From a virus (Duplodnaviria; Caudoviricetes), in the IMG/VR virus record IMGVR_UViG_3300015214_000026, positions 1-64,000 of that record: DNA of 64,000 bases; one strand, given 5' to 3'. The position numbers were made by a program, and so were the translations under genes. Position 1 is the first letter of the stretch. Each line of letters begins with the position of its first letter. Positions 2,126-47,538 of this stretch are shown here, piece after piece. The notes below the pieces were generated by a model. That model saw nothing but the letters and a program-made list of their open reading frames with translations, was not told the DNA's origin and made no database searches.

Positions 2126-3778
2126 ATGAAAACAAAAACTGCTGATAGAGTTTTAGGTGAGCCTTTTGTGTATAAAAAACACAAGATGACTAAAGCTTAT
2201 GGTGATATGCGGTTTAGATTCTATAGCTGTGGGCATACTCCTGATGAACACAATCAGATAATTTATGTAAAATATAAGCCCATGGCTAATCAGACCGTAG
2301 ATAGCCAAGCTATAATTCTATCATCAGACATAGACCATGTTCACTTTGATTTACCAGATAGAGAACTTCTTATTACGAAGAATAATTTCGTAATAGGTGG
2401 TTCTAGGCCGTTAAATAAACCTAATAAAGAAGGATGGCATAAGGCGGTATCCCTTACACCAATGACGTCGGTTGCGGATGATTGGCCTTTTGATAGGTTT
2501 ATGATAAACCCGCATGCATATACTGATAATACAGAACCAAAAATTAGAGATACTAGAACACAATATACATCAGATAAAGTGTGTATTGCGGATAGTTCGG
2601 CCTTCCAATTAGGTCATGGTCATTTACAATTTATCGATCCCGATACTTTATGTGGCTTTTATGATAGAAATGCGGATGAAGGTGTAGTATTAGATATTCC
2701 TACTAGGCATCTATCGGATAAGATATCTATTCTAAAGCATACAGCTAAACTTCAAAATCTTAATACCAAATATATGAAGAAACGTATGTTTGATTATCAT
2801 GGTAGAAAGGATTTTCGTTTTGCTACTGTGTTTCATGGCTTATCTATGCCATCGTTGGAATTTTTTCGTAATAAAATTGAAGAATTTGATGACGATTTCC
2901 CTATAGTATGTATATCGGGCGCTATGAGATTCAATGTTCTTGAATCTATACATAGAATGCTTAAAATCATACTCAAAGGTAAGCAATACCCACAATATCA
3001 TCTTCTTGGAGTAGGGCATCCAGTTCTTCTGTCGTTGGTTATATGGTTATCGTATTTGCTGAAGCGTTCAGAGAAAGATATTCTTATCACTTCTGACGCC
3101 TCTTCTGCTATTATGTTGTCTGCTGCTCATACATACTATTCACAAAATGTGTATCATGAAGGGTTAAACCTTACTAGGTTTGGTTTAAAGATGGATACCA
3201 ATAAGGATGCTCCATCTGGTAATACGCCTAATTCATATAGGCGTATAATGACTATAGACCCTATATCGGAAATAGTGGGTGGATATCAGGATATTATTTC
3301 TGGTTATAATATTGCGGCTACTAGAACATACATTAAATATGTAAATATGCTATCTATGCATAGATATTTTAATATGATGTGCTTATACGCGGATACTTTG
3401 GACCATAAAGGGTATAAAGAACTTATTATTGAGCAATATAAAAAATCTACACATGTTCAATTAATGTCAGTTACTATGGATTATCTTCAAATGGTATTTG
3501 AAGGCGGGATGACTGATAAAGCTGTAGATAGAGCTTATAATAAATATAAATTCTATATGCCAACATTTTCTGGTGAAGCCACTTTACATAAATTTCCTGC
3601 TATTCAAGAGGAAGAAGAACAAGATCAATTTTTATTAAAGAAACGAGCATTTGTTAAGAAGCATCTAATTACTGTGATTAATAACTATTATGAGTTTCAT
3701 AGATCAGGTAAACGTCCTAAATCTTTTGTTAATCTAGAGAAAAAAGAGTTTGATTTATCAAACGCTATGAGGAAATAG
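2126..3778 (+). CDS. TGT-superfamily transglycosylase, probably DpdA-like 7-deazaguanine DNA insertase
   Basis: ADSSAFQ (cf. DSGGFQ), VLDIP, TVFHG, YHLLGVG and SDASS in TGT order; adjacent to folE. Confidence 0.75.
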   Translation: MKTKTADRVLGEPFVYKKHKMTKAYGDMRFRFYSCGHTPDEHNQIIYVKYKPMANQTVDSQAIILSSDIDHVHFDLPDRELLITKNNFVIGGSRPLNKPNKEGWHKAVSLTPMTSVADDWPFDRFMINPHAYTDNTEPKIRDTRTQYTSDKVCIADSSAFQLGHGHLQFIDPDTLCGFYDRNADEGVVLDIPTRHLSDKISILKHTAKLQNLNTKYMKKRMFDYHGRKDFRFATVFHGLSMPSLEFFRNKIEEFDDDFPIVCISGAMRFNVLESIHRMLKIILKGKQYPQYHLLGVGHPVLLSLVIWLSYLLKRSEKDILITSDASSAIMLSAAHTYYSQNVYHEGLNLTRFGLKMDTNKDAPSGNTPNSYRRIMTIDPISEIVGGYQDIISGYNIAATRTYIKYVNMLSMHRYFNMMCLYADTLDHKGYKELIIEQYKKSTHVQLMSVTMDYLQMVFEGGMTDKAVDRAYNKYKFYMPTFSGEATLHKFPAIQEEEEQDQFLLKKRAFVKKHLITVINNYYEFHRSGKRPKSFVNLEKKEFDLSNAMRK

Positions 3779-3781
3779 TTT

Positions 3782-4117
3782 ATGCACAGGGATATTATAG
3801 AAGCTAGAAGAAAGATTAGAGCGTATGAGTCTGCGCTTAGAAGGACTTTACGTAGACTTCAAGAAACTTGTACACATGAGATAGCCTATCACGTAGAAGG
3901 TAGGTCAAGCGAATACTTTGGGCGGTCTCCTTCTGTAAGAATGTGCTGTAATTGCTGTTATGAAGAGCATTCACCTTGGGGATCTGCTACTATGTGGCCA
4001 AGTGGAGGTCTGTCTGATAGATTCGGCAACAAAGCTACGTATTCAAGAAAATCATTATTAGGTAATAGTGCTATTAAAGTAATATCTAAAGATAGATATT
4101 TAAAAATTAGGCCATAG
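3782..4117 (+). CDS. Hypothetical Cys-rich protein
   Basis: Tightly packed ORF with CxH and CCxCC. Confidence 0.65.
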   Translation: MHRDIIEARRKIRAYESALRRTLRRLQETCTHEIAYHVEGRSSEYFGRSPSVRMCCNCCYEEHSPWGSATMWPSGGLSDRFGNKATYSRKSLLGNSAIKVISKDRYLKIRP

Positions 4118-4119
4118 TT

Positions 4120-4371
4120 ATGGAATCAGATAAAGAATTAGCTGAGATTCTTGAAATAGCTAGAGGTTGTGGAGTAACTATTCATGTCCGTGGTACAGAT
4201 CAACGACCAGTTGTAGAGCTGTTATCCAAACAAAATAGAAGAGTAGGTAATAGAATTGTTGTTGGTGGTATAGAATTAAAACAGCGTTACGCTAGATTAT
4301 GCACTAATGAAGGCTGGAAGAATACTATTGGTATGAGTTTAGGAAAATTTAAGCACGGGAGATACCGATGA
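4120..4371 (+). CDS. Hypothetical protein
   Basis: Packed ORF in operon. Confidence 0.6.
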   Translation: MESDKELAEILEIARGCGVTIHVRGTDQRPVVELLSKQNRRVGNRIVVGGIELKQRYARLCTNEGWKNTIGMSLGKFKHGRYR

Positions 4372-4682
4372 AAAGATTTTGTAAATTAAATGTATTGCTA
4401 CTAATAGACAGATTTATTACCGATGATACCGAACGTAGTAACCTTCGTACTGCTATTGCTAATGAACTAGAAACCTCTATCTCTGCTGAAAATAGAGGTA
4501 TAGATGAAGCTATAAAATTTGTTAGGAATCGATGCGATACGTATATAGAAGAACATGGTATTTGGGACCCATCTACAGGGGTGGTAGAATTTCGTGGCGA
4601 TGGTGAGGAATACGTTGCTGAATTAGAAGAAATAATGGAGGGTTTGGAAACTCTTAAATTCAAAGCTAAAATTGAAGGTTAA
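4368..4682 (+). CDS. Hypothetical protein
   Basis: ATGA overlap with the upstream ORF. Confidence 0.65.
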   Translation: MKRFCKLNVLLLIDRFITDDTERSNLRTAIANELETSISAENRGIDEAIKFVRNRCDTYIEEHGIWDPSTGVVEFRGDGEEYVAELEEIMEGLETLKFKAKIEG

Positions 4683-4711: not shown

Positions 4712-5266
4712 ATGACCTTCAAATACGCCATTAAACCATTTTTTAAAGTACCTAAACGAATGCGTAAGGAACCAACCCTTACCATTCGTGATATAAATAA
4801 GTACGTACCAAATGAGACGAAATTAAAATCTCGTCTTGTAGGTATTGAACAGGCGTATGAAGGTAATACTCCTAAATTTTTAGAGGGCTGGACTACTTAT
4901 CGATTTCAGACACGTAATAGCGAAAATGGGCACCAATACCGTTTAGCTATTTTTTCGCCTACCCCTAGAGTCCGTCTTAATACGAAAGTAGTAATCGATG
5001 ACCAATGCCCAGTATATATCTTTATGTATGAATATGCCATGGCGAAAAGGGGAAATGCGTACATCTTTCGCTCTAATGGCGACGCCCCTATACGCACTAA
5101 CCCTTCTCTACGTCCAGGCGTTAGTCATCACGCCTACCGTTGTCTTCAATACTTGGTCAAATTTACAGATGAAACGGGATTAAAGGTTTCAAGGAAGCGT
5201 TCTGATAGAGAAACAGAGGATTTATATCGTGAAGCTAATAAACTGGCTTCGAGGCGGCGTAGATGA
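4712..5266 (+). CDS. Hypothetical basic protein
   Basis: 184-aa ORF with RBS GAGGA and a TTAATTCTA motif upstream. Confidence 0.7.
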   Translation: MTFKYAIKPFFKVPKRMRKEPTLTIRDINKYVPNETKLKSRLVGIEQAYEGNTPKFLEGWTTYRFQTRNSENGHQYRLAIFSPTPRVRLNTKVVIDDQCPVYIFMYEYAMAKRGNAYIFRSNGDAPIRTNPSLRPGVSHHAYRCLQYLVKFTDETGLKVSRKRSDRETEDLYREANKLASRRRR

Positions 5267-5874
5267 TCTATATAGGCGCTGATCCTGGCACGGCCAACTA
5301 CGCCTATTCTGTTATAGAATGTAAGCGTACATCTATAAATATACTTGAAATAGGTATGGTTCAAGCCACTATTACAAATTTAACTAAAAATCATGCTAAG
5401 CCACCTAAATCTAAAAGAAAAAAGAAGCAGCCGATAATTCTTATACCGCCTTTTGATACACAATTTAAAGAATATAAAACCACTTGGGATATTCTTATAG
5501 AAGAATTTAAACCTGTTAAAATAACTGTTGAGAGGTTTCAATCTAGAGGATATCAGGGTTCTCAAGTTATCGAAGCGGTTAGCATGATGAATGGAATTTT
5601 ATCTGCTTTAGCCTATGCTTCAAATGTAGAATATGAAAATCATATAGCAGGAACTTGGAAAAATAATTTAAATAAATATCTTTCTAATAATCCACAGTTA
5701 AATTTATCGCATTTAGAAGAAATATATGAATCTTGTAATGCTATCCCTAATCACGTTGTAGATAGTATTTTTATAAATCTTTATGGTATGCTTCGTCATA
5801 AATCGAAGGCGTGGTCTGATTTGAATCTTGTCAAGCTTATTAAAGATATACAAAAATATGAATACATAAAATAG
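5263..5874 (+). CDS. RuvC-like Holliday junction resolvase
   Basis: IYIGADPGTANYAYS, VERFQSRG and HVVDS catalytic motifs. Confidence 0.8.
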   Translation: MIYIGADPGTANYAYSVIECKRTSINILEIGMVQATITNLTKNHAKPPKSKRKKKQPIILIPPFDTQFKEYKTTWDILIEEFKPVKITVERFQSRGYQGSQVIEAVSMMNGILSALAYASNVEYENHIAGTWKNNLNKYLSNNPQLNLSHLEEIYESCNAIPNHVVDSIFINLYGMLRHKSKAWSDLNLVKLIKDIQKYEYIK

Positions 5875-5883
5875 GCAACAACA

Positions 5884-6486
5884 ATGACAAGTTTCAAATG
5901 TCCTCATAATGAATCAGTTCATATATTAAAATCTTGTCCGATAGTGGAATGCCCGTTCCACTATAATAAAGTATCTATATTCTTTAAAATAGATAAGCAA
6001 GAAACTAACTGCGTTTATTATGATTCAGATATAATGTCCAATGTATCAGATAATCGCACGCAAATATCTGCACTATCAAGGGATAGCCGTAGAACAGTAT
6101 CGCCAAAAGCGATTAAAGAATCATATGACGATGCTTTGGCTTATATAAAAACAAAGATTCATCTTATACATGATATATCTTCTAATAAGCACGCGTGTAA
6201 ATCCTGTGGGATACAGTTAAATACAAAGGCTGAAACATGCGTTAGTGTATCTGCTTGCTCGTCTAGGCGAGAATGGATTAAATATATAGCATCTTTATAC
6301 GGAGTAGAAGATAACCAATCTACCAAACAATTAATTTGGGAATTGCTTTTCAAGGATAAGATACATTTGGAGGAACAAGCTAAGCAATTAGGTTATTCGT
6401 TATGTCCGTCAAGATTATTATCTGATTATATAAAAGATAAAATGGCGAAATATGAAAATGAAAAATTATCCACGGTAAATAAATAG
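5884..6486 (+). CDS. Hypothetical Zn-binding protein
   Basis: Multiple Cys clusters (CPH, CPIVECPFH, CKSC). Confidence 0.7.
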   Translation: MTSFKCPHNESVHILKSCPIVECPFHYNKVSIFFKIDKQETNCVYYDSDIMSNVSDNRTQISALSRDSRRTVSPKAIKESYDDALAYIKTKIHLIHDISSNKHACKSCGIQLNTKAETCVSVSACSSRREWIKYIASLYGVEDNQSTKQLIWELLFKDKIHLEEQAKQLGYSLCPSRLLSDYIKDKMAKYENEKLSTVNK

Positions 6487-43599: not shown

Positions 43600-43835
43600 T
43601 ATCTCTACTCTATCTTTTCATAGAAAAGAATTAGTAAAAAGTAGTATTTCTTGTGGAATAAAGGCACAAAAAAGGGAGGATTTATCCTCCCAAAACTTAA
43701 ATAGATTGAACTTATAAAGTTGGTATATCAGCAACCGCCGGGTACTAAATCATGCACCCCACAATTTATACAAATTTCATCGTAGAGGCGTCAATAGATA
43801 TTCTTGTTTTGTGGGATGGGTGCTTTCCCGTACAA

Positions 43836-44087
43836 TTAATCCTCTATTTTAACTCGACGAAGTTCGTATCCTAGCATACGATAAGCCATTTGTATTGAAA
43901 CACTTTGTGGATGTTTAACCTTGCTTTTCATCCAGTTATTCAAGGTACTAGAGGATAAACCAGAAACATTTGCTTTTGCGTAGGTACTTCGATTATCCCT
44001 ACGCAAAAGGGTTACAATATCATCCAACATAGGATCAATTTCTGGTTTTTCTGGCTTATTAACAAAGGTTCTCTGCTTTTTAACCAT
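43836..44087 (-). CDS. XRE-like HTH protein
   Basis: A..SGLSSSTL.NW......P....I......LGYEL. Confidence 0.7.
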   Translation of the reverse strand: MVKKQRTFVNKPEKPEIDPMLDDIVTLLRRDNRSTYAKANVSGLSSSTLNNWMKSKVKHPQSVSIQMAYRMLGYELRRVKIED

Positions 44088-44101
44088 TGTTGCATATTCC
44101 T

Positions 44102-44569
44102 TTATGTTTGTTCAGCTGTGTCTTCACCTAGAATATGTCTTACAATGAAATTTCTAATACGTAATAGACTTTCATTTTGATTCTGCAAATCTACAAGAAT
44201 AATATTTAAACGGTCATTAATTTTAGAAGATTCAACCGATCCATCTTTTTCTTCCGAAGATTCTTTTTCTTCCGAAGATTCGGGCATTCTATCAATTTGT
44301 GATAATAGTTGCGTAATAGTATTAATTGCGTAGTTATTATTATTCGTAATATTGGCAATTCTAGTAGTTAGATCGCAGGTAGACAATGTTTTATGTTTAC
44401 CAACTTTTTTAGATTTAGTTATAGGTAATTTATAACTATACTGATGATCGTCATCATCATCGTCGTCTTCGTTAACCCTGTTAATATAAGCTTTAGATTT
44501 CTTATTGCCCATAGAAATATCCTTTGGTGTCGATCGACTTTTTGTCGGAGCTGTTATTGGTCTAACCAT
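44102..44569 (-). CDS. Hypothetical protein
   Basis: ORF with poly-Asp and a short ESSEEK duplication. Confidence 0.65.
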   Translation of the reverse strand: MVRPITAPTKSRSTPKDISMGNKKSKAYINRVNEDDDDDDDHQYSYKLPITKSKKVGKHKTLSTCDLTTRIANITNNNNYAINTITQLLSQIDRMPESSEEKESSEEKDGSVESSKINDRLNIILVDLQNQNESLLRIRNFIVRHILGEDTAEQT

Positions 44570-44691
44570 TATCTAGCCTTACCCTGCCCACGGTATGGTT
44601 TCTTCGTATTACGCTTGTTATTTGGTCGGCTGAATGACGAATTACCAATAGAGGTACGATGCTTCTTTGTAATGCCCTTTTTCTGTGCCAT
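44569..44691 (-). CDS. 40-aa basic peptide (MAQKKGITKKHRTSIGNSSFSRPNNKRNTKKPYRGQGKAR), not in the ORF track
   Basis: RBS GAAAGGA; TAATG coupling to the next gene; TSIG...YRGQG pattern of small phage peptides. Confidence 0.75.
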   Translation of the reverse strand: MAQKKGITKKHRTSIGNSSFSRPNNKRNTKKPYRGQGKAR

Positions 44692-44854
44692 GTTATTTTC
44701 CTTTCATTGCGCTGTTACTATATTCTATATCCGTTCGCCGGAGTTATCACTTCTGACTATACGATGAAGCACCACGGATAAACAGTATTGTCATTATGAC
44801 CCTTGCAGAATGTAGATAAACCCAACTGCTATCATAATCTAGCTTCAAAGAATC

Positions 44855-44880
44855 TGGTGAACTCGGTGGGGATCGAACCC
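44855..44880 (-). pseudogene. 3' half of a split tRNA-like gene (T arm, acceptor strand, ACCA)
   Basis: GGG-TTCGATC-CCCAC-CGAGTTC-ACCA. Confidence 0.8.
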
Positions 44881-44903
44881 TCTTTGGATTTCTCCGAGGA
44901 ATT

Positions 44904-44979
44904 TGGTGGGTCCATCGGGATTTGAACCCGAATTTCGGAATTAAAAGTTCCGCACACTAACCAATTGTGTTATGGACCC
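44904..44979 (-). tRNA. tRNA-Lys(UUU)
   Basis: GGGTCCA/TGGACCC acceptor, CGGAA-CTTTTAA-TTCCG anticodon arm, TTCAAAT T-loop, encoded CCA. Confidence 0.93.
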
Positions 44980-44987
44980 AAATCTAT

Positions 44988-45386
44988 TTATAATCTACAC
45001 CAAGCTTTGTGCCCCGCGTAAGATTTAACAGATTTGAAAATCTTACCGCATTTACATCTTTTCCTTATTTTAGGATTAGAAAAACAACCTTCACCATTAA
45101 TTTTAGTTTTCACCTTATGACAAGTTCTGCATCTTAATTCACATTTATTGATTTCTTCCCAAAATCTAAGCTCTGAAAATGAGGAAGCTCTAGCTATTGT
45201 AATAGTTTTAGCCGAAGGGTCAACGTGGTCAAATTCTAATCTTGTTTTTCTAGAACAGTCTACACATTTACCGCCTAAATATTTTATAGCCTCTTTTCTT
45301 CTTTTACGCCATCTTTCCTTCATATAATCATTCATGTATTGATTGTATTTTTCTTTATCTTTAGATGTTTTTGATGTACTAGACAT
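44988..45386 (-). CDS. HNH endonuclease in the tRNA cluster
   Basis: LGGKCVDC...LEFDHVDP...E..KCELRCRTCH..KT; start MSSTSK at 45386 (the longer track ORF runs over RNA genes). Confidence 0.85.
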   Translation of the reverse strand: MSSTSKTSKDKEKYNQYMNDYMKERWRKRRKEAIKYLGGKCVDCSRKTRLEFDHVDPSAKTITIARASSFSELRFWEEINKCELRCRTCHKVKTKINGEGCFSNPKIRKRCKCGKIFKSVKSYAGHKAWCRL

Positions 45387-45402
45387 TATAACCAATAACC
45401 TT

Positions 45403-45457
45403 ACCCGCCCGGTGAGTATCGCATCCGTAATAGCTCTACTAGCTGAGCTACGAGTTC
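45403..45457 (-). pseudogene. 5' half of the split tRNA-like gene (acceptor strand and D arm)
   Basis: GAACTCG-TA-GCTC-AGCTAGTA-GAGC; GAACTCG pairs perfectly with CGAGTTC of the 3' half. Confidence 0.8.
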
Positions 45458-45503
45458 GAGTTGTGGAGGGGTTAGGAAAAGCAGGAAACCTAACCCCTCC
45501 ACC

Positions 45504-45625
45504 AATCGTAGTAAACATTGCCGGCCTTCTCGAAAACATCCGCATGTTAGTTTCGATCGGCCACCTTTGTCTTTCGTCCATGAATGCCATCAATTACGAG
45601 GTTTCATCCATGGCATACTACGATT
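45504..45625 (-). ncRNA. Putative structured ncRNA module A
   Basis: 10-bp closing stem AATCGTAGTA/TACTACGATT enclosing TGCCAT/ATGGCA and GGCC..TCGAAA/TTTCGA..GGCC hairpins. Confidence 0.55.
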
Positions 45626-45636
45626 AACTAGAAGAA

Positions 45637-45769
45637 GTCGAGGGAACCAGCTTTGATATACTGGCGAGCCACCGAACGGCCTGCTTTACTTGATGAGGGT
45701 TCGGTCAACATCAAGCTATTCCCTCTACATCGCAGCCTCACCCCTTTCAAGCGGGGTAGCTTACTCGAC
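45637..45769 (-). ncRNA. Putative structured ncRNA module B with pseudoknot
   Basis: GAGGGAA/TTCCCTC, ACCGAAC/GTTCGGT, CCAG/CTGG, CCCC/GGGG stems; CTTGATG/CATCAAG pseudoknot. Confidence 0.55.
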
Positions 45770-45904
45770 GTATTCTTGTATTAGTTGGGACCAACCTTAC
45801 GTAGTTGGCGGGTCGCTTAGCGTCCTCTTATTCGATGGACAAGATCGAACTATCCCGTACCTATTTTAGTTTCTAGGACATACCTAAATAGGTAAATGTG
45901 ATAG

Positions 45905-45981
45905 TGGTGGGAGCGGTCGGGTATGATCCGACATAGATTCCGTTATGAGCGGAAGGCATTCTCCATTTATGCTACACTCCC
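45905..45981 (-). tRNA. tRNA with CAU anticodon (elongator Met, or Ile2)
   Basis: GGGAGTG/CGCTCCC acceptor, TTCCG-CTCATAA-CGGAA, atypical T-loop ATCATAC, CCA. Confidence 0.85.
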
Positions 45982-45996
45982 GAAAATTAATTTAGT

Positions 45997-46079
45997 TGGT
46001 GCCCGCTGCCGGACTCGAACCGGCACTCCGAAGAAGAGCATTTTAAGTGCTCCGCGGCTACCATTTACGCCAAGCGGGC
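45997..46079 (-). tRNA. tRNA-Leu(UAA)
   Basis: GCCCGCT/AGCGGGC acceptor, GAGCA-CTTAAAA-TGCTC, long variable arm, TTCGAGT, CCA. Confidence 0.93.
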
Positions 46080-46111
46080 ATCAACTAAATTAATCTTAAG
46101 CGTCTACAAAC

Positions 46112-46222
46112 GAAAGGGTGGTAAGATAAATCAGCCTCAGGCGGGGGACACAATTATCTGACTTACCTTACCTACAATCATCCGCGCGGGGGGATGAACG
46201 AATGACTGTATTTTACCCTTCC
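46112..46222 (-). ncRNA. Putative structured ncRNA module D
   Basis: AAGGGT/ACCCTT closing stem; GGTAAG/CTTACC, TCAG/CTGA, TACA/TGTA, TCATCC/GGATGA stems. Confidence 0.5.
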
Positions 46223-46378
46223 GCTTCTGCAAGTTACCTCGTATAGAAGCAACTCACAAACTCACAAACGTGTTTAAGACACTCTCGCAAAATATACAAC
46301 ACGTTTGGTTACTCTAGACCATCAGGGTCTGACTTCTCTTTACCGTGGGAAAAATCACTACCCTACTAGTCTACATAT

Positions 46379-46407
46379 AGTATATCCTACTACAAATACC
46401 CTGTCAA
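46379..46407 (-). promoter_or_regulatory. Sigma70-type promoter of the tRNA/ncRNA cluster
   Basis: TTGACA-17nt-TATACT on the minus strand. Confidence 0.75.
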
Positions 46408-46410
46408 CCC

Positions 46411-47538
46411 CTATTTTAGTATCCTTTTGAACCCCATTTGATAGGGTATCTGGAGCAAACGTATACCCGGAGTAGCGTTAAAATCTATAATTACAGGACC
46501 TTTATCAGTTACAGCTATATCGAATCCAATTAACTTGGTGGGTCTGAAAACTTTTGCTGCCTTTTCTACGAAAGAAACAAGATCATCCCAATCAGGTACA
46601 ATTGCTCTTTTTACTTTTAGTTCAGCATTACCAAGATAATCTTTACCTCTATAGGCTGTATTAAACAAATGGCCGTTATCTAGATCGATAGCCACAGCGT
46701 AATTACCGCTTGTATTAAAATTGTCTACCCAATTTAACCCGCGAGATAACTTATACACGGCCCCTACAACGTTTCCTCGCAAAGTAACAAAACGTATGGT
46801 ATTCAAACCTTTGGAATGTCGTGTAAAGGATGGTTTAAATGAAGATTTAACTACCTTTGAAATAAGGTAGTCTTTATCGTTCATACGCTCTTTTAATTCT
46901 TCATATCCCATTTTACCAATAGGTGTTACAAAACTATCGGATAACCTATTATATTTATACGCTAATATTGTGTCGATACCGCCTACACCATCGATAGGTT
47001 TCATGAAGAATGGAGTATAATTAATAAGTTCTTTTTTAGAAATTTCTTGGCTATTAAATGTACCTAAGTCTTCTGTGGCGTGATCGTTACCTAACTTATA
47101 ACGGATCAGTTTATTCGCTAAATCCTTATCATCAAAATGAAGGAATTTCCTATCGTTTAGTTTATTCCATAAATCATACAATTTCAAACCGCTTATATAC
47201 GAATTTTTCTCTCCTTGTGTTTTATTATAAAGCCGGTATTCAAGATATTCATTCGGTGTTATTAAATTGGTTGCCGCCAATTTTGTTGTTTCTTGAATTA
47301 ATTTTACGCGATCTACACTATTAGGAGCTATCTTTTTATAAATTGTTGCTAAAGAAGCATTAGAATCGGGGTCTTCAATCAATAGAAGAAGACTACGTAT
47401 ATTACCTATAATATCTTCTTCAACGGATACTTGAGCTGATTCAGACTTATCTTTATAGGTCTTATATACAAATCTATAGGTATCAGAAGCCCATTTACCT
47501 TGCTTACCAAGAGCAATATCCATAATATCTAACCCCAT
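46411..47538 (-). CDS. ATP-grasp ligase (sugar-transfer-associated / alpha-L-glutamate ligase-like)
   Basis: DDK, FFMKP..G.GG, LNTIRFVT, VDNF, VPDWD, IGFDIAVTDKGPVIIDFN. Confidence 0.8.
   Translation of the reverse strand: MGLDIMDIALGKQGKWASDTYRFVYKTYKDKSESAQVSVEEDIIGNIRSLLLLIEDPDSNASLATIYKKIAPNSVDRVKLIQETTKLAATNLITPNEYLEYRLYNKTQGEKNSYISGLKLYDLWNKLNDRKFLHFDDKDLANKLIRYKLGNDHATEDLGTFNSQEISKKELINYTPFFMKPIDGVGGIDTILAYKYNRLSDSFVTPIGKMGYEELKERMNDKDYLISKVVKSSFKPSFTRHSKGLNTIRFVTLRGNVVGAVYKLSRGLNWVDNFNTSGNYAVAIDLDNGHLFNTAYRGKDYLGNAELKVKRAIVPDWDDLVSFVEKAAKVFRPTKLIGFDIAVTDKGPVIIDFNATPGIRLLQIPYQMGFKRILK

Follow-up and report, generated by a model that had tools for sequence, protein, structure and literature searches.

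How a phage transfer RNA (tRNA) gene comes to lie in two pieces around a nuclease gene and a second, complete tRNA gene is the question raised by a locus of the IMG/VR virus record IMGVR_UViG_3300015214_000026 (Duplodnaviria; Caudoviricetes). The DNA analysed, here called the window, is the first 64 kb (64,000 nucleotides) of this 170-kb record, with a completeness estimated by CheckV at 94%. On the minus strand of the window, the two halves of a tRNA-like gene enclose an HNH homing-endonuclease gene and a tRNA-Lys(UUU) gene (Table 1). The data make it probable that this arrangement arose at the DNA level, through the insertion of a cassette composed of the HNH gene and tRNA-Lys into a resident tRNA-like gene, between its positions 26 and 27, and that the two halves are the remnants of this gene.

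The D arm of the 5′ half has a GCTC/GAGC stem and the loop AGCTAGTA, and reaches position 45433, the next base (45432) corresponding to T26. The 3′ half reads GAGGG-TTCGATC-CCCAC (44882-44866), followed by CGAGTTC (44865-44859), A73 and CCA (44857-44855). Seven out of seven Watson-Crick pairs are formed between the acceptor strands of the two halves, an outcome with a chance of 4^-7 (~6e-5) in a fixed register, and the D-arm consensus TAGCTCAGNNNGTAGAGC has a single match in the 64 kb, with 0 mismatches, when 0.1 would be expected even at 2 mismatches allowed. Since this acceptor pairing occurs beside unique D-arm and T-arm consensus sequences, the two pieces are halves of one tRNA-derived gene. 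The original prediction had described these halves with a perfect 7-bp acceptor stem, and between them an HNH open reading frame (ORF), a tRNA-Lys(UUU) and a GAAA-tetraloop hairpin; all of these elements were recovered, the hairpin (GGA-GAAA-TCC, 44894-44885) having a stem of 3 bp. ARAGORN, run with or without introns, assigned the 5′ half to no tRNA.

Reading along the minus strand, a 447-nt ORF-free stretch is followed by the 5′ half, the cassette leader, the HNH ORF, tRNA-Lys, 21 nt and the 3′ half, and the 3′ boundary of the cassette coincides with the CCA end of tRNA-Lys. The leader holds a Shine-Dalgarno-like TAAGG (45403-45399) located 12 nt upstream of the ATG. The HNH protein matched PHROG 4234 (HNH endonuclease) at 6.3e-21 and four more HNH PHROGs; its match to the Pfam HNH family was weak. 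It displays the motif CxxC...DH...CxxCH and a zinc-finger-like C-terminal tail, and the zinc-binding and catalytic residues C41, C44, D53, H54, C86, C89 and H90 are invariant across the alignment of its homologues. A longer frame of 201 aa from TTG 45593 was discarded as a read-through artefact, the homologues beginning at the 45386 ATG. The HNH gene is single-copy in the phage genome and shares its strand with the flanking tRNA-Leu, tRNA-Met and tRNA-Lys genes, which are clustered on the minus strand and are the only three tRNA genes of the phage, so that tRNA-Lys(UUU) is its sole tRNA-Lys.

Table 1. Features of the split tRNA-like gene in the window and of comparable nested loci
Feature	Position	Strand	Description
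Outer tRNA-like gene, 5′ half	45457-45433	minus	acceptor strand GAACTCG (45457-45451), U8 and A9 (TA), complete D arm
Outer tRNA-like gene, 3′ half	44882-44855	minus	T arm, 3′ strand of acceptor stem, A73, CCA
Putative cassette, 528 bp	45431-44904	minus	5′ leader, HNH gene and tRNA-Lys(UUU)
Cassette leader, 45 nt	45431-45387	minus	ATTACGGATGCGATACTCACCGGGCGGGTAAGGTTATTGGTTATA
HNH homing-endonuclease gene, intact, 132 aa	45386 (ATG)-44988 (TAA)	minus	PHROG match
tRNA-Lys(UUU), complete	44979-44904	minus	CCA encoded; ARAGORN; Rfam tRNA, 71.5 bits
Spacer between tRNA-Lys and 3′ half, 21 nt	44903-44883	minus	AATTC-CTCGGAG-AAATC-CAAA; place of anticodon arm and variable loop
Segment missing in a relative, 417 bp	45420-45004	minus	the bulk of the leader and almost the whole HNH ORF
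tRNA-Met(CAU)	45981-45905	minus	
tRNA-Leu(UAA)	46079-45997	minus	
Locus L061			outer gene probably Val-like; HNH, then tRNA-Val(UAC) between halves; no ribozyme
Locus L098			outer gene Gln-like; HNH, then tRNA-Gln(UUG) between halves; no ribozyme
Loci L094 and L106			outer gene Pro-like; odd tRNA-Pro(UGG), then HNH between halves; no ribozyme
Locus L089			shell with 6/7 acceptor pairs; HNH between halves, no nested tRNA; no ribozyme
Nested unit A of phage G001 (L025, IMGVR_UViG_3300037565_000025)	3625-4440		GGGTGCT + D arm + ACCGC-CTT, tRNA-Lys(UUU), HNH_3 ORF, GTGGG-TTCGAGT-CCCAC-AGCACCC-A-CCA; acceptor stem and CCA intact
Nested unit B of phage G001 (L025)	5236-5941		GGGCTTG + partial D arm, tRNA-Met, HNH_3 ORF, GGGGG-TTCGAGT-CCCTC-CAGGCCC-A-CCA; acceptor stem and CCA intact

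The state of this locus in close relatives was determined in landfill and sludge metagenomes, in which the stretch is present. Logan contigs of four runs (X2, X3, X5 and X6) were compared over 43800-46500, the interpretation of X3, X5 and X6 being limited to the parts covered by contigs. In one X6 contig (record 24; 317 nt, depth 15.4), 44830-45003 directly adjoins 45421-45462, with a microhomology of 2 nt, revealing a clean loss of 417 bp that keeps tRNA-Lys and both outer halves. This contig retains the last 16 nt of the HNH ORF, coding for the conserved C-terminal motif, and is therefore a deletion derivative in which the HNH gene is being lost, the usual fate of homing endonuclease genes. 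A 349-nt X3 contig joins 45432 (T26) to 44903, skipping exactly 528 bp, and probably represents an empty site, with ~128 letters unplaced that may lie at the joint. A second X6 contig skips the whole unit, from 44823 to 45530. Downstream of the 3′ half, the contig of one relative cleanly lacks 85 bp (44745-44829), and other contigs vary over 44706-44863. When IMG/VR was scanned for exact patterns of the 5′ half and of an empty-site junction, neither gave a match. The HNH gene is thus patchy and polymorphic, being present in some and absent from other homologous genomes.

The same contigs are informative on the condition of the outer gene. In the window, its T stem (GAGGG/CCCAC) carries an A50-A64 mismatch that is common to X2, whereas in X3, X5 and X6, which come from three studies, a U in place of A at 44867 yields a perfect GAGGG/CCCUC stem. 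A mismatch here against a perfect stem in relatives fits the decay of a dead gene, and suggests that the outer gene is gathering damage in the window strain. In annotation, both halves would be better marked as a disrupted tRNA-like gene than as a tRNA.

The nuclease of the window belongs to a family that is associated with tRNA genes. A profile built from its closest homologues retrieved 80 metagenome loci (designated with L numbers), and tRNA genes were present in 56 of them, 407 out of 408 tRNAs lying on the same strand as the HNH gene. Genes for tRNA-Lys made up 35 of the 71 tRNAs directly adjoining HNH vs 5% of the other tRNAs, an enrichment with a binomial p of ~1e-26 calculated over loci that are not independent. 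Three forms of the family were found: free-standing, inside a group I intron of tRNA-Lys, and nested in split tRNAs. The free-standing form is exemplified by E. coli phage JohannJBalmer, with HNH followed by tRNA-Lys as in the window, and by Stenotrophomonas phage Mendera, with tRNA-Lys followed by HNH. The intronic form is that of L042 (2937-3582), where an HNH gene of the same family lies in a 572-nt group I intron at the CTT|TTAA site of tRNA-Lys(UUU), the same site that is occupied in L033 (601-905) by a 228-nt ORF-less group I intron.

The nested form recurs in several loci (Table 1). The complete layout, in which orphan halves with complementary acceptors enclose a complete tRNA and a nuclease gene with no ribozyme, was found in the window, twice in L025, and in L061, L094, L098 and L106. 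Nested and broken tRNAs are of one kind in L098 (Gln) and in L094 and L106 (Pro), and probably also in L061 (Val) and in unit A of G001 (Lys); this is not the case of the window, whose outer gene is CGG at best and has an Ile-like acceptor. In addition, orphan T arms or truncated tRNAs adjoin many such HNH genes, as in L032, L059 (a 5′-truncated tRNA-Lys(CUU)) and L074.

A comparison of L094 with L106 indicates where the outer halves, hereafter the shell, come from. These two loci share an identical nested tRNA and an identical proximal portion of the outer 5′ half, and their HNH genes are ~93-95% identical; their outer acceptor stems show three compensatory differences (pairs 5-68, 6-67 and 7-66) and their flanks are unrelated. 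This pattern is expected if a single cassette entered two distinct alleles of tRNA-Pro and the sequence close to the insertion point was co-converted, and the mosaic argues that the shell derives from the target and not from the element.

Some tRNAs associated with these nucleases have unusual sequences. The nested tRNA-Pro(UGG) of L094 (1000-1070) and L106 (2904-2974) has a non-canonical D arm and the T loop GGCAGTA, the T loop of the tRNA-Met of the window (ATCATAC) is devoid of TTC, and L043 contains two odd tRNA-Lys(UUU) genes that were missed by ARAGORN. These odd tRNAs may have been recoded to escape nucleases.

Related phages in IMG/VR were limited to two, G001 and G002, with clamp loader identities of 51-54%. 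Their DNA does not align with the split-gene region, and the window-type HNH was found in neither of them; the search for related loci through the ATP-grasp neighbour retrieved none, and blastn of the region against cultured phages gave tRNA-Leu matches only. Phage G002 has one tRNA, an uninterrupted tRNA-Met. Phage G001 has the same three tRNA kinds as the window phage, and two of them are nested as in the window, in units whose HNH_3 nucleases have no detectable similarity to the HNH of the window; therefore, the layout arose repeatedly with different nucleases. The outer 5′ exon of unit A stops at ACCGC-CTT, a site that is also the insertion point of the group I introns in tRNA-Lys. Upstream of the shell of unit A, a CUGAUGA motif resembling that of a hammerhead was rejected, as its core is a misfit and Rfam gave no match. 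A non-coding stretch of ~230 nt with a long hairpin lies just before the first shell of G001.

No sign of a self-splicing intron was detected around the cassette. At gathering thresholds Rfam reported the three tRNAs and no group I or group II intron; a cmscan of 44300-46300 with E up to 10 again gave three tRNAs and no Intron_gpI or group II match; and ARAGORN, with introns of up to 1 kb allowed over the whole genome, found no fourth tRNA. The same searches detected Intron_gpI in the positive controls L033 (62.7 bits) and L042 (51.3 bits). Hence, the two features of a tRNA group I intron, a ribozyme core and an insertion in the anticodon loop, are both lacking in the window, and the Infernal search for a group I core that the original prediction had proposed returned no match on these 2 kb. 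A transfer-messenger RNA (tmRNA), standard or permuted, was also rejected, with scores of 6.4 and 16.9 bits vs the 47-bit cut-off and only the T arm covered, as was a tmRNA-like message, since pair 3-70 is A-U and not G3-U70 and the ORF inside starts at an ATG of its own, preceded by a Shine-Dalgarno sequence.

The uninterrupted gene was then rebuilt in silico. Deletion of the cassette leaves 75 nt with canonical tRNA dimensions (7/2/4/8/4/1/5/7/5/4/5/7/5/7/1 plus CCA) and with U33 and A37 in register; ARAGORN reads this join as tRNA-Pro(CGG) with the T-stem base of the relatives, and as no tRNA with the T stem of the window itself. In its anticodon stem, two positions are mismatched and the other three are A-U pairs; the small GAAA hairpin is the fold favoured by RNAfold. 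At best, 44903-44883 would form an anticodon stem of 3 bp that keeps U33, CGG and A37 in register. No single deletion or join within the window restores a canonical anticodon arm, and the best joins of the halves give an anticodon stem of 3 bp or a loop with C33. A scan of all joins is uninformative, because ARAGORN takes nearly any middle as a tRNA if the acceptor and T arms are good. Among 465 phage tRNAs compared, the tRNA-Ile(GAU) of L054 resembles the outer acceptor stem at 13 out of 14 positions. The target would thus be a gene of tRNA origin and uncertain identity that may already have been degenerate.

These results refine the original prediction at several points. The joining of 45403 to 44880 that it proposed does form a GTGGG/CCCAC T stem on paper; the join is unnecessary and an artefact of the point mutation at 44867. 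The anticodon arm is non-canonical, as had been noted, and what was taken for an arm is the cassette leader, from which no canonical arm can be built. A homing cassette composed of HNH and a tRNA cargo remains the favoured one of its two proposals, with the insertion point moved from the T stem to T26|A27 (45432|44903).

The second of those proposals, a functional tRNA-like clamp around a messenger RNA (mRNA), belongs to a broader explanation in which the tRNA-shaped shell is part of the mobile element and acts as RNA: its ends would pair and be trimmed by RNase P and 3′ processing, and would define or stabilise the HNH transcript or allow the ordinary enzymes of tRNA maturation to free the element from host RNA. 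Perfect acceptor pairing and an encoded CCA in three independent shells (the window and both units of G001) agree with this idea, as does the anticodon arm that is missing or unrecognisable in the same three, together with part of the D arm in unit B; so does L089, whose shell encloses an HNH gene without a nested tRNA. However, the window shell is not itself within another tRNA, and excision of tRNA-Lys would cut the 3′ half off the HNH mRNA, leaving 7 bp alone to hold the pieces. The T stem is disrupted in the window strain and not in X3, X5 or X6, the distal shell parts of L094 and L106 differ though their cassettes are 93-100% identical, and the halves persist in relatives after deletion of HNH and apparently also without the whole cassette. 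A role of the shell as RNA is therefore unlikely, and the clamp with it.

Rearrangement within the tRNA array offers another route, by which recombination between the conserved D arms and T arms of neighbouring array tRNAs would have put an existing pair of HNH and tRNA-Lys inside a third tRNA gene. The arrays that bear these HNH genes are full of orphan T arms and truncated tRNAs (such as those of L032, L059 and L074), the cluster is an indel hot spot in the relatives, and SegB-driven amplification at microhomologies has been published (PMC13096335). We regard such a by-product as slightly less probable still than the RNA role, given that the junctions are clean, the cassette stops exactly at the CCA of tRNA-Lys, the halves sum to one tRNA length, no chimeric tRNA parts were seen, and other loci show the nested pattern again, with other nucleases and other tRNAs. 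Finally, it is very improbable that the outer gene encodes a genuine tRNA from which a very large intron, made up of HNH and tRNA-Lys, is spliced by an endonuclease and an RNA ligase such as RtcB or Rnl. In favour of this reading, removal of the cassette gives the canonical dimensions and keeps U33 and A37 in register, the cassette stops at the 3′ end of tRNA-Lys, and one of the 'enigmatic introns' in Lak megaphage tRNAs may itself hold a tRNA (PMC6784885). Against it, a group I core is lacking, the rebuilt anticodon stem is very weak, no processing is known to occur at T26|A27, the T stem of the window strain has a mismatch, the HNH-less deletion variant speaks of evolution at the DNA level, and unit B of G001 and L098 are without any anticodon arm.

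Insertion of the cassette at the DNA level therefore stays as the probable explanation, and the following steps can be proposed. The HNH nuclease or its ancestor would have cut the uninterrupted tRNA-like gene, and double-strand-break repair would have copied the unit of leader, HNH and tRNA-Lys into the break. The halves would not be rejoined as RNA and would be functionless in themselves, unless perhaps they serve as homology arms in later rounds of homing. The HNH gene would pass through the usual gain-and-loss cycle of homing endonucleases, and tRNA-Lys, the habitual partner of this nuclease family, would be a cargo and not a spare copy of the outer gene.

Four considerations weigh against this explanation. 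The uninterrupted outer gene would have had an anticodon stem of 3 A-U pairs, so that the target may never have been an ordinary tRNA. The nested tRNA-Lys is unlike the outer gene, and the 'spare copy' logic of L098 and of L094/L106 fails here. The acceptor strands pair at 7/7 positions despite the unrecognisable middle of the gene, which could reflect selection on RNA. Lastly, the ~128 unplaced letters of the X3 contig leave the empty site as probable and not as proven.

Regarding expression, a near-consensus sigma-70-type promoter (TTGACA-17-TATACT, 11/12 matches) is located upstream of tRNA-Leu (46407-46379, minus strand), and transcription of the tRNA cluster probably starts there. No terminator-like site was found on this strand; therefore, co-transcription of the cassette with the tRNAs is plausible. 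The cluster would probably be made as one precursor transcript, from which tRNA-Lys would be released by RNase P and 3′ processing, and the HNH mRNA would be the piece upstream of tRNA-Lys, its 3′ end being set by the RNase P cut at tRNA-Lys. The sigma-70-like promoter and the occurrence of HNH homologues in phages of bacteria are bacterial-type features of this phage.

Other non-coding and variable features are found in the vicinity. The 447-nt ORF-free stretch between tRNA-Met and the 5′ half (45904-45458, minus) is GC-richer and corresponds to a strongly structured RNA, with a 14-bp hairpin at its end, a minimum free energy z-score of -5.85 and ~95% conservation in the relatives' contigs; it matched no Rfam family. 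Just downstream of tRNA-Met, at ~45859-45836 on the minus strand, a T-arm-like remnant (GATAG-TTCGATC-TTGTC, then CATCGAA) may be another orphan tRNA 3′ half, and a deletion endpoint of a relative (45836) falls at its edge. The tRNA-Met gene itself was altered in contigs of two sludge metagenomes: in X3, 749 letters replace 45938-45963, the tRNA-Met anticodon arm, and in X5, 45870-45981 is swapped for 22 letters, leaving no tRNA-Met gene. From these contigs, the neighbouring tRNA-Met gene appears to be likewise split and lost in close relatives.

Homing endonuclease genes are thought to persist inside genes only if an intron or intein splices them out. In the window and at least seven other examined loci, a nuclease gene lies in a tRNA gene with no ribozyme and with a complete tRNA adjoining it (none being nested in L089). 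If the cassette is what moves, this would constitute a third strategy, in which a replacement or a useful cargo is carried instead of splicing. We tentatively suggest, as a view that is somewhat more likely wrong than right, that these loci form a distinct class of mobile elements, homing cassettes that invade small RNA genes without a self-splicing intron and that offset the damage, or pay their way, by means of a complete tRNA gene. Within that class, some members would be natural 'home-and-rescue' drives, the tRNA-Lys of the window could be an anti-defence cargo, and the group I, free-standing and nested forms would be interchangeable states. The tRNA-Lys(UUU) is a target of anticodon nucleases. 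It is also the target of PARIS, and phage tRNA-Lys has been proven to counter this system (PMC11464382). If the cassette is indeed what moves, the third strategy would account for the orphan tRNA halves and odd 'introns' met by tRNA finders in large phage genomes, would show a route for anti-defence tRNAs such as tRNA-Lys between phages, and would provide natural nucleases against conserved tRNA-gene sequences.

The HNH gene of the window has the traits of a free-standing homing endonuclease of a phage tRNA cluster: it is an ORF of such a family, it lies in a tRNA cluster and not within a self-splicing intron or intein, and it is polymorphic among relatives. HNH nickases occur in the tRNA region of T5. 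An established case is that of SegB of T4/T6, a GIY-YIG nuclease that recognises a conserved T-loop motif of tRNA genes and cuts the tRNA genes of phages without SegB (PMC2330249), driving the inheritance and even the amplification of the tRNA region (PMC13096335; PMC2330249). As in that system, a homing-family nuclease gene lies in a co-oriented phage tRNA cluster, has a patchy distribution and is tied to particular tRNA genes. On the other hand, segB is placed between intact tRNA genes and its homing replaces the recipient region, whereas the HNH gene and tRNA of the window are inside another tRNA-like gene, and the nuclease is a zinc-binding HNH protein and not a GIY-YIG enzyme.

Group I introns that contain homing endonuclease genes are known from genes of bacteria and phages, the anticodon loops of tRNAs being among their sites (PMC3984707). 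The window shares with them a homing endonuclease ORF that interrupts a tRNA gene, and L042 has an HNH gene of the same family in tRNA-Lys(UUU). It differs from them in the lack of a ribozyme core, in the position of the break at 26/27, in the presence of a complete second tRNA, and in that its exons rebuild no canonical tRNA. In Lak megaphages, tRNA genes contain 'enigmatic introns', one of them predicted to encode a tRNA, which were left unexplained (Devoto et al. 2019, PMC6784885). In both cases a phage tRNA gene contains an insert, perhaps with a tRNA, that some relatives have and others lack and that was assigned to no Rfam class; in the Lak case no nuclease gene was reported and the inserts were read as introns, whereas in the window a DNA insertion would have killed the outer gene. 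Beyond these Lak introns, cassettes of a nuclease gene and a tRNA gene within a split tRNA gene were not found described in the full-text literature searched.

Synthetic 'home-and-rescue' and 'cleave-and-rescue' gene drives combine a nuclease placed in a disrupted gene with a carried intact copy. In the same manner, L098, L094/L106 and probably L061 and unit A of G001 carry a diverged intact copy of the gene they disrupt. The cassettes described here differ from those drives in being natural and in having a putative cleavage specificity, and in the window tRNA-Lys would be a cargo and not a rescue. Altogether, the window represents a further instance of a recurrent variant of free-standing homing endonucleases, with polymorphism at the population level.

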